The translations under genes were made by a program, and so were the position numbers. Under the pieces are notes generated by a model, which worked only from the letters and a program-made list of their open reading frames with translations, did no database searches and was not told the origin of the DNA. A stretch of DNA of 2,189 nt. Origin: Naegleria gruberi (Eukaryota). Of the stretch, positions 701-2,189 are shown piece after piece (the stretch's first letter is position 1; every line of letters starts with the position of its first letter). Location of the stretch: NCBI GenBank assembly GCA_000004985.1, contig GG739283.1, one strand, 5' to 3'.

Positions 701-805
701 ATGTCTCAACAGCTTAAAATCTTGATAAAAAATGTTCATAACAATTACCTGCCCGGATTTACTCATGCTTTCAATTATACTACTCAGCTTCTTCTTCATG
801 GATAA
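701..805 (+). other. Short 34-codon ORF (MSQQLKILIKNVHNNYLPGFTHAFNYTTQLLLHG*) overlapping the start of the main gene out of frame. Possible upstream overlapping ORF if the transcript 5' end lies upstream of 701.
   Basis: ATG 701-703 runs to TAA 803-805 in frame +2. GGAGG at 691-695 sits 5 nt upstream, which is Shine-Dalgarno-like but probably coincidental in this eukaryotic context. Confidence 0.15.
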
Positions 806-824
806 GACACTGGCAGCTTCTAGT
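732..824 (+). other. Predicted cleavable signal peptide of the 7TM protein (hydrophobic core LLMLSIILLSFFFM, small residues A-A-S before the putative cleavage site).
   Basis: By-eye n/h/c-region structure. It is followed by an ectodomain rich in Cys and N-glycosylation sequons, which is consistent with secretory-pathway entry. It could instead be an uncleaved signal anchor, and if translation starts at ATG 765 the peptide is 11 aa shorter. Confidence 0.5.
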
Positions 825-2189
825 GAACAAGTTTATTATTTCAATCAATGCCATAATGTTACCAGAGCAATGGTCTATCAAACAGACTTTGAGAATAGTA
901 TCATCAGAGGTGATCTGAATATTCCTTTAGATTTTGGATGTGGGCATGTATTATTTGATAGTAATTTATTACTTGATCCGAGTACTGGGAAGCTTGGAGA
1001 TTTAATATTTCATGGATCAAAATTACCACTCTCTGATATTTGTACTAATGTGAGGCAGTGGGAAGTATCTTTGCAAGTATCATGTGAGGAGATGTTGTGT
1101 GGAAATGTTACGAGTTCGAGAAACAGTTTGGGAATGTTTGTTTCTGAAATGACACAACACAATACAACAGTTCAGGATTGGATTAATTATTGTCAATACT
1201 GTTCGGCTGACAATGTCATGTTTAAAAAAAGAGTGAAATCAAATAATTGTCTCACGAATGACGACACGATACAGCGAGCTATTGATAATTTTCCAAATTC
1301 ACTTCAATATTGTGGATTTGAAACATTTTCTTTACCACTATTAACATTGGATAACTATTTCATTTGTGCATGTGAAGGTTATTTTGCTTACAGGTGTTTT
1401 TCAAAAACTGTACAATATCAAAATTCGAGTTCAATCATAATTGCTGGTGTATTATCATCTACTTTAATATTTACTTTGTTTTTTGCCTTTATACCCAAAG
1501 TTTATTGTTCCCTCAAGAAGAGAAAGATATTTGACATTTTCCCTCTAACTTACACAATGGTATTTAGTTGCTTATTCATAACAGAATCTGCTCTCAAAAA
1601 CCAGGTTCAGGAAGAAATTACTTCTATTCTTAAAGGTGGATTTTACACATGTTTGCTCTTATCAATTAGTGCATGGATAAGTAACTGGTATAGAATTGTG
1701 AGAAAAATCTCAAATATCACAAGTTTACGAATCAATATTATGCTTTACATTTCTCAATTTTTGATAATTGTAATTTTATCTTTCATTATTCCATCAGGAT
1801 TAATTATTTATTACCCAAAACAGGGTTTTCAGTTTTATGGAGTAGTTTCTGTTGCTTTTTCAATAGTTTCAGCTTGTCTATTTCTTGGGACATCTATTTG
1901 GATCAATAAGAAATTGAAATTATTATCAGATGTGAATATTTATGAATCTAGTTTGTACAAATTAGTTGGTTTTACGGTAATTCTGCTCATACTTCATTCT
2001 CTGTTGAGTTTTACTTTCTTAATTACCGACGACAAAGAAATTATCTTTTTATCAGATTCAGTGTTAGTTATCATTTCTTATGGAATAGTCTATGCAGAGT
2101 TTGATAAGGATATGATCCATGAATTTTATTCCAATTGTTGTCGAACAAGAAATAAGGCTGGTAAGGAATATGACTCTCTCTCAGAGAAT
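732..2189 (+). CDS. 5'-complete, 3'-truncated CDS for a signal peptide + Cys-rich glycosylated ectodomain + 7TM receptor-like membrane protein. It continues beyond the window end, with an alternative start at ATG 765.
   Basis: This frame is closed by TGA 723-725 and TAA 726-728, then open from ATG 732 to nt 2189 (486 codons, checked codon by codon, no stop). ATG 732 sits in an A-rich context (gataaaaaATGt) matching the yeast-type initiation consensus, whereas ATG 765 has T at -3. The N-terminus MFITITCPDLLMLSIILLSFFFMDKTLAAS|SEQ looks like a signal peptide. The ectodomain carries 12 Cys (849..1397) and sequons NVT 855-863, NVT 1104-1112, NTT 1161-1169 and NSS 1422-1430. Seven hydrophobic stretches lie between 1431 and 2102. 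Basic loops (KKRK 1515-1526, RIVRK 1692-1706, NKKLK 1905-1919) alternate sides as expected for N-out/C-in. It is absent from the ORF track only because there is no stop inside the window. Confidence 0.85.
   Translation, partial: MFITITCPDLLMLSIILLSFFFMDKTLAASSEQVYYFNQCHNVTRAMVYQTDFENSIIRGDLNIPLDFGCGHVLFDSNLLLDPSTGKLGDLIFHGSKLPLSDICTNVRQWEVSLQVSCEEMLCGNVTSSRNSLGMFVSEMTQHNTTVQDWINYCQYCSADNVMFKKRVKSNNCLTNDDTIQRAIDNFPNSLQYCGFETFSLPLLTLDNYFICACEGYFAYRCFSKTVQYQNSSSIIIAGVLSSTLIFTLFFAFIPKVYCSLKKRKIFDIFPLTYTMVFSCLFITESALKNQVQEEITSILKGGFYTCLLLSISAWISNWYRIVRKISNITSLRINIMLYISQFLIIVILSFIIPSGLIIYYPKQGFQFYGVVSVAFSIVSACLFLGTSIWINKKLKLLSDVNIYESSLYKLVGFTVILLILHSLLSFTFLITDDKEIIFLSDSVLVIISYGIVYAEFDKDMIHEFYSNCCRTRNKAGKEYDSLSEN
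1431..2102 (+). other. Seven-transmembrane core of the plus-strand protein, with TM1 1431-1496, TM2 1527-1595, TM3 1641-1691, TM4 1731-1814, TM5 1842-1904, TM6 1962-2027 and TM7 2046-2102.
   Basis: Seven hydrophobic runs of 17-28 aa. Lys/Arg-rich loops follow TM1, TM3 and TM5, and the C-tail is basic (CCRTRNKAGK), all as the positive-inside rule predicts for the cytoplasmic side. The short loops between them are neutral or acidic and would be extracellular. NIT at 1713-1721 falls in a cytoplasmic loop and is therefore not expected to be glycosylated. Confidence 0.7.

Follow-up and report, generated by a model that had tools for sequence, protein, structure and literature searches.

The 2,189-nucleotide stretch of contig GG739283.1 of Naegleria gruberi (GCA_000004985.1), hereafter the window, contains a reading frame that runs off its 3' edge, which raises the question of what kind of membrane protein this frame encodes. 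The evidence described below favors a surface receptor-like protein with the fold of a G-protein-coupled receptor (GPCR) that belongs to an orphan family of Naegleria, an assignment that we consider probable. The coding sequence (732-2189, plus strand, frame +3) begins with the ATG at 732, preceded by an in-frame TAA at 726-728, and extends for 486 stop-free codons to the last base of the window. The window is AT-rich (G+C 27-38%, about 33%), and with its base composition the probability of a 486-codon open frame arising by chance is approximately 6e-17; elsewhere, the longest run without a stop, all frames considered, is 145 codons. A chance open reading frame (ORF) was ruled out by these statistics combined with homology, the frame aligning over its full length with 28 homologs. 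An earlier inspection of the letters alone, the sequence-only reading, had described an unbroken frame of at least 486 codons from ATG 732 to the edge and had remarked that the gene was missing from the ORF track. The frame was recovered with no internal stop, and its absence from the track is explained by the omission of ORFs that run off the window end. The results establish 732-2189 as a genuine gene with its 3' end beyond the window. Since the full-length relatives end within roughly 10 residues of a C-terminal YxxΦ motif that is present in the window protein, the frame probably lacks only a few C-terminal codons.

Relatives were identified by an exhaustive phmmer (HMMER) scan of 1.84 billion protein cluster representatives, which returned 28 proteins at E≤1e-3 and four at E≤1e-30. 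The best match (E 1.8e-40, 31% identity) spans query residues 37-480. Identity of the window protein to family members is only 20-33% and therefore no ortholog is on record; taken with the G+C content of about 33%, this points to a divergent paralog or to an unsampled heterolobosean similar to Naegleria. Every named relative is annotated, in Naegleria fowleri, N. lovaniensis or N. gruberi, as a hypothetical or predicted protein, and the remainder come from metagenome and read-archive assemblies. Whole-length homologs include XP_044562431.1 (FDP41_003040) and XP_044562433.1 of N. fowleri, XP_044552849.1 of N. lovaniensis, and XP_002668595.1, XP_002671768.1, XP_002677422.1 and XP_002674775.1 of N. 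gruberi. These named homologs (E 1.8e-40 to 1e-15) share with the window protein a framework of 12 cysteines, the blocks DWINYCQYC and FPxSxxFCG, seven helices and a set of cytosolic motifs. The window protein accordingly shows all of the features by which the family was recognized, namely homology over the ectodomain and the seven-transmembrane (7TM) region, the 12 cysteines with both blocks, and the cytosolic motifs with YxxΦ.

No named family was matched, in agreement with the earlier proposal of a possible orphan receptor; the kinship with fungal or amoebozoan receptors also proposed was not borne out, all named relatives being Heterolobosea of the genus Naegleria. Pfam gave no match to the window protein at E≤10 and no family common to the 29 members at E up to 1, and a PDB sequence search with the window protein returned no match. 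A word-indexed search of 5.8 billion proteins found nothing with the single protein, and two profiles gave only the already known members P0024 and P0022. No relative was found in IMG/VR viral contigs or by phage BLAST, nor in JGI metagenome contigs searched with peptide patterns and a degenerate DNA pattern for DWINYCQYC. A search of the literature library for 12 locus tags of family members found no paper. Judged by sequence and as so far known, the relatives constitute an unnamed and uncharacterized small family restricted to Naegleria-type (heterolobosean) amoebae. The window gene is a divergent, intron-less member, and its relatives are already public as hypothetical proteins.

The N-terminal hydrophobic leader claimed previously is present at residues 1-28 (732-815; this and all further features of the gene are on the plus strand). 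Its hydrophobic peak (Kyte-Doolittle 2.09) lies at approximately residues 5-23 and is followed by TLA/A. A hydrophobic N-terminal stretch is located at the equivalent place in most full-length relatives. The leader is plausibly a cleavable signal peptide, with cleavage likely after TLA.

The leader is followed by a cysteine-rich ectodomain (residues 29-233; 816-1430), supported by cysteine and sequon positions, the family alignment and the AlphaFold2 model. The counts of 12 cysteines and four N-x-S/T sequons given by the sequence-only reading match, and the length is roughly 200 residues. The cysteines are at positions 40, 70, 104, 118, 123, 154, 157, 173, 194, 212, 214 and 222; an additional one, C7, is in the leader. 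Most of the 12 are invariant and the rest near-invariant in the alignment columns of the family, and they probably form six disulfides. The sequons are N42, N125, N144 and N231, of which N42 and N144 are shared with the family consensus, a recurrence that supports an extracytosolic location of the ectodomain. With only some three residues between it and the TM1 core, N231 may be too near the membrane to be used. A fifth sequon, N328-I-T (1713-1721), falls in the loop connecting TM3 to TM4, which is predicted to be cytosolic and where glycosylation is not expected.

Two blocks dominate the ectodomain. The family signature DWINYCQYC (residues 149-157; 1176-1202) contains N152, C154, Y156 and C157, each conserved in 27/27 aligned sequences, and W150 in 26/27. 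The second block, FPNSLQYCGFETFSLP (residues 187-202; 1290-1337), has the family consensus FPxSxxFCGxxxFGIP, with P188 and C194 each in 26/26, G195 in 24/26 and P202 in 25/25; the window protein reads S200-L201 where relatives have G-I. The AlphaFold2 model of the ectodomain is mixed but mainly helical, with about eight helices (including 45-59, 103-123, 133-140, 147-169 and 178-185) and short strands only, and the predicted local distance difference test (pLDDT) score is mostly 87-97. The ectodomains alone gave no consistent match to Pfam at E up to 10, and an ectodomain profile searched against the PDB returned noise only. By these comparisons the ectodomain appears to be of a new type without a recognizable relative.

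The seven hydrophobic helices proposed earlier were found as six hydrophobicity peaks of at least 1.66 and a weaker peak of 1.37 for TM3, and all seven are present in the AlphaFold2 model at residues 225-262, 266-288, 294-326, 332-360, 362-398, 407-432 and 435-456, with a helix 8 at 459-470. The loop charges agree with the N-out/C-in orientation proposed in the same reading: the K+R counts are 5/3/3 in the cytosolic loops versus 1/1/1 in the outer loops, with basic clusters after TM1, TM3 and TM5. The leader, the outside sequons and cysteines, and the loop charges together fit a predicted N-out/C-in topology.

Within the family, conserved positions cluster in the ectodomain and at the cytosolic side of the bundle (helix ends and loops) rather than in the membrane core. 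The TM1 core (residues 234-254; 1431-1493), assigned from the model, alignment and hydrophobicity, is followed by a conserved P255-K256 and KKRK. The TM2 core (residues 266-286; 1527-1589) was placed by the model and hydrophobicity, as was that of TM6 (residues 409-431; 1956-2024). TM3 (residues 299-321; 1626-1694) ends at the cytosolic face with W315-x3-W319-Y-R321, an instance of the family motif W..W(Y/F)R, for which the alignment shows W315 and W319 each in 19/23 and R321 in 16/23 sequences. The alignment and model also define the cores of TM4 (residues 333-355; 1728-1796), with a conserved Y339 near its cytosolic end at the helix start, TM5 (residues 366-391; 1827-1904), with a conserved F384, and TM7 (residues 437-455; 2040-2096). 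Intracellular loop 3 carries the motif KLLSDVN (residues 396-402; 1917-1937); the family consensus is KKxSDxN, where the window protein reads KLLSD, and the columns show K396 in 20/23, S399 and D400 each in 22/23 and N402 in 17/24. S399 is a candidate phosphosite for a basophilic kinase, in the context K-x-x-S here and K-K-x-S in most relatives.

The post-TM7 motif EFDKDMIHEFYSNCC (residues 456-470; 2097-2141) extends from the cytosolic end of TM7 through the predicted amphipathic helix 8, which ends at C469-C470. The family consensus is EFDK..F..Y..C (E456 in 9/12, F457 in 11/12, Y466 in 12/15 and C469 in 18/18), and the motif is also encoded in downstream exons of metagenome relatives. The Cys-Cys pair at 2136-2141, previously likened to a palmitoylation site, corresponds to C469-C470; C469 is a cysteine in 18 of the 18 aligned relatives but C470 is not conserved, leaving C469 as the candidate site. 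The C-terminal YxxΦ motif YDSL (residues 480-483; 2169-2180) aligns with YSKM, YSLV, YSEV, YVSF, YSQL and YDSV, found at the very end of the full-length relatives, and is a candidate adaptor-binding sorting signal. Within the membrane, the buried D268, E285, D442 and TM6 histidine on which a polar core had been proposed are present in the window protein, but the relatives mostly carry Asn at position 268 and Ser at position 285. A ligand- or ion-interacting core resting on these two residues is thus not supported by conservation; position 442 in TM7 is polar throughout the family (H/D/N).

In order to model the fold, AlphaFold2 was run on the single sequence, with a pLDDT of 41, and again with a 29-sequence alignment, with a mean pLDDT of 83.8, a predicted template modeling score (pTM) of 0.71 and all five models at 81-84. 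The model shows the seven-helix packing of GPCRs together with helix 8. All of the 50 best Foldseek matches in the PDB are GPCRs; the majority belong to class A, a few to class B1 and one to class C, and E values are modest (1e-3 to 3e-2), with target TM-scores mostly of 0.4-0.6. The best of these are G-protein-bound class A receptors, and the top matches in BFVD are dominated by herpesvirus GPCRs. Among the Foldseek matches listed there was no TMEM87, Wntless, Frizzled (class F) or microbial rhodopsin. The bundle is thus predicted, on the basis of the model, to fold like animal GPCRs in the absence of detectable sequence similarity.

Overall, we favor the assignment as a GPCR-fold surface receptor-like protein of the Naegleria orphan family. 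The proposed mechanism begins at the cell surface, where the N-glycosylated ectodomain of approximately 200 residues, with its six probable disulfides, would capture a ligand or contact partner, and the helix bundle would relay the resulting change across the membrane. One shared transducer could then be engaged by the conserved cytosolic surface, which is made up of the PK that follows TM1, the W..WYR that closes TM3, the KKxSDxN of loop 3 and the EFDK..F..Y..C of helix 8; a heterotrimeric G protein and an arrestin-like protein are the most plausible candidates for this transducer. Phosphorylation of S399 and adaptor-mediated endocytosis through YxxΦ may serve desensitization and endocytosis, and C469 at the terminus of helix 8 may be palmitoylated.

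Several points weigh against this assignment. The support for a receptor is entirely computational, the fold is a prediction built on 29 sequences only, and the stop codon of the frame is beyond the window edge. No sequence-level link to any GPCR family, 7tm_1 included, was found with Pfam or PDB profiles; PDB profile searches with the whole family or with the 7TM part returned noise and no GPCR, and hhalign of the 7TM profile with bovine rhodopsin gave a probability of 0.1%, which is a weak test. On sequence reading the class A hallmarks are absent, namely the TM1 asparagine (N1.50), the LxxxD of TM2 (D2.50), the acidic residue of D/ERY, CWxP in TM6 (which has no Pro/Trp motif) and NPxxY in TM7. 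The disulfide between TM3 and the second extracellular loop is likewise absent, that loop (YYPKQGFQ) having no cysteine. The echoes of class A are limited to the TM3-end arginine (16/23), helix 8 and the helix-8 cysteine. Furthermore, some proteins with GPCR-like folds have no coupling to G proteins.

The stronger proposition that the family is a genuine heterolobosean-specific GPCR class, diverged past sequence recognition, is a tentative one that we hold as possible and somewhat doubtful. Some of the many Gα subunits encoded by N. fowleri exchange slowly and should need a receptor acting as guanine nucleotide exchange factor, and arrestin-like proteins are encoded as well (PMC9283941). Only one GPCR candidate, cAR-like, was recognized by sequence in N. 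fowleri (PMC9283941). If the family were a true GPCR class, the "missing" exchange factors for the slow-exchanging Naegleria Gα would be found in it, and the 12-cysteine ectodomain would represent a fold for ligand binding that has not been seen before.

The alternative that survives best, itself unlikely in our estimate, is a GPCR-fold 7TM protein that signals without G proteins, as a sorting or cargo, adhesion or cell-recognition receptor. Such a protein would cycle between surface and endosome by means of its YxxΦ tail while the ectodomain bound cargo, prey or partner cells. The C-terminal YxxΦ is conserved, the ectodomain is conserved at least as well as the bundle, the membrane core has no conserved polar pocket, and the class A activation micro-switches are absent on sequence reading. 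GPCR-like "superdark" 7TM families with non-classical functions related to arrestins and kinases have also been reported (PMC13581589). However, the bundle is most conserved at its cytosolic face (TM3-end Arg, loop 3 and helix 8), which is the transducer surface of GPCRs, and the top structural matches are receptors bound to G proteins.

The remaining alternatives are far less probable. The resemblance to GOLD-domain 7TM proteins suggested by the sequence-only reading would make the window protein a Golgi-endosome member of the GOST/LUSTR group (GPR107/108, TMEM87 and yeast Ptm1), with which it has in common the layout of a leader, a lumenal domain of approximately 200 residues and a 7TM region; the bundles of GOST proteins are GPCR-like as well. 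This identity is very improbable because the Lung_7-TM_R hidden Markov model (HMM) matched neither the 29 members (E up to 1) nor the ectodomains alone (E up to 10), the predicted ectodomain is mainly helical with no GOLD beta-sandwich, and the structural neighbors are also wrong, TMEM87 being absent from the matches listed. Equally improbable is a class F (Frizzled/Smoothened-like) receptor, similar to Dictyostelium Fsl, whose cysteine-rich domain has diverged, an option consistent with a largely helical, cysteine-rich ectodomain ahead of a 7TM bundle. No member matched Fz or Frizzled in Pfam, the 12 cysteines are spaced differently from the 10-cysteine Fz pattern, KTxxxW is absent after TM7 where the sequence is EFDKDMIHEFY (within EFDKDMIHEFYSNCC), and no class F structure is among the best matches listed. 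Least probable of all is a 7TM-RGS protein with its RGS domain beyond the window edge, for which the open frame and the 28 such proteins with complex ectodomains in N. fowleri (PMC9283941) can be cited, and which fails since the 28 relatives have no RGS match and the full-length ones terminate at most about 10 residues from the YxxΦ aligned to residues 480-483, that is, where the window ends. A cAMP-receptor-like GPCR was rejected as no member matched the Dicty_CAR HMM, a microbial rhodopsin was excluded by the absence of a lysine in TM7, and a transporter was also rejected.

Turning to gene structure, several members of the family carry an intron following loop 3. The best relative, which is in locus L001 of N. 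fowleri, is interrupted by a 100-nt intron (11237-11336) immediately after the loop-3 motif, and two neighboring paralogs break at the same place. An intron at this conserved position, after KKxSDxNxxxS, is likewise found at approximately 4497-4517 and 6148-6187 in L002, 2471-2480 in L004, and 1871-1901 and 3764-3791 in L005. The relatives in these four loci carry the post-loop-3 intron, whereas the window gene has none at that site. Many of the metagenome family proteins stop at the intron by read-through, ending in ...SV..., and as a consequence many family proteins in the databases are truncated. The missing last exons, which encode TM6, TM7 and helix 8 (EFDKEEF..Y..C), are located downstream and uncalled in L002, L004 and L005. 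The genes also occur in tandem, with three paralogs in L001 of N. fowleri (10001-15321) and two in each of the metagenome contigs L002 (3232-6400) and L005 (582-4093). Multiple tandem paralogs are a pattern typical of expanding sensor families. The middle copy in L001, FDP41_003041 (263 aa), has no counterpart to residues 154-265 of its neighbor and may be a fragment, a pseudogene or a mis-modeled gene.

Upstream of the gene, two ORFs meet head to head at 218-223 (CAT/ATG) within positions 1-610 of the window. An ORF scan gave a 129-aa ORF on the plus strand (221-610) with a signal-peptide-like start, MMMKPFFLLFLLFLLWFIVQSES, and a Ser/Thr/Gln-rich ORF on the minus strand (310-1) that runs off the left edge and has an internal Met at 220. 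Neither ORF matched Pfam, and the 129-aa product is not on record. Evaluated with the codon usage of the main gene, each scores as high in-frame as that gene does, and the two head-to-head starts cannot both be genuine if a promoter separates them. A TTG / TTGTTGTTT microsatellite at 236-270 is read as Leu/Phe-rich sequence in the plus-strand ORF and as QQKQQKQQ in the minus-strand ORF. An Rfam scan of the window gave sub-threshold chance matches only, and a tRNA search of the window found none.

Naegleria is rich in heterotrimeric G proteins, RGS and arrestin-like proteins, and the receptor input to this machinery is poorly understood. Concrete receptor candidates are provided by this family, which has multiple paralogs, is expanding in tandem, and combines a confidently predicted GPCR-like fold with conservation of the cytosolic face. 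Some paralogs are present in the lethal pathogen N. fowleri, for which surface 7TM proteins would be attractive drug targets. A GPCR-like bundle that is invisible to profiles and occurs outside the well-studied eukaryotic groups also bears on the age and plasticity of the GPCR fold. The result is an annotation and a testable lead based on prediction, rather than a surprise of principle.

The family may be compared with three known systems. The "superdark" TM184 and PRRT proteins resemble GPCRs at the level of the fold only, as does the window protein, and are human families unrelated in sequence to that of Naegleria (PMC13581589). The 7TM-RGS proteins and the cAR-like candidate of Naegleria (PMC9283941) are from the same organisms, combine 7TM regions with elaborate ectodomains, and are proposed to be surface sensors that feed G proteins; in contrast to these, the family of the window protein has no match to RGS, EGF, lectin, the GPS motif or Dicty_CAR. 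Among class A GPCRs, the nearest structural cluster is that of the lipid receptors GPR3/GPR6, S1P1 and CB1/CB2, with an identity to the window protein of about 10%. The GPCR-fold 7TM protein is a kind already known, and what is new is its pairing, in Heterolobosea, with an ectodomain that has no recognizable relative: where class A receptors have a short N-terminus, the window protein has a large disulfide-rich ectodomain instead.

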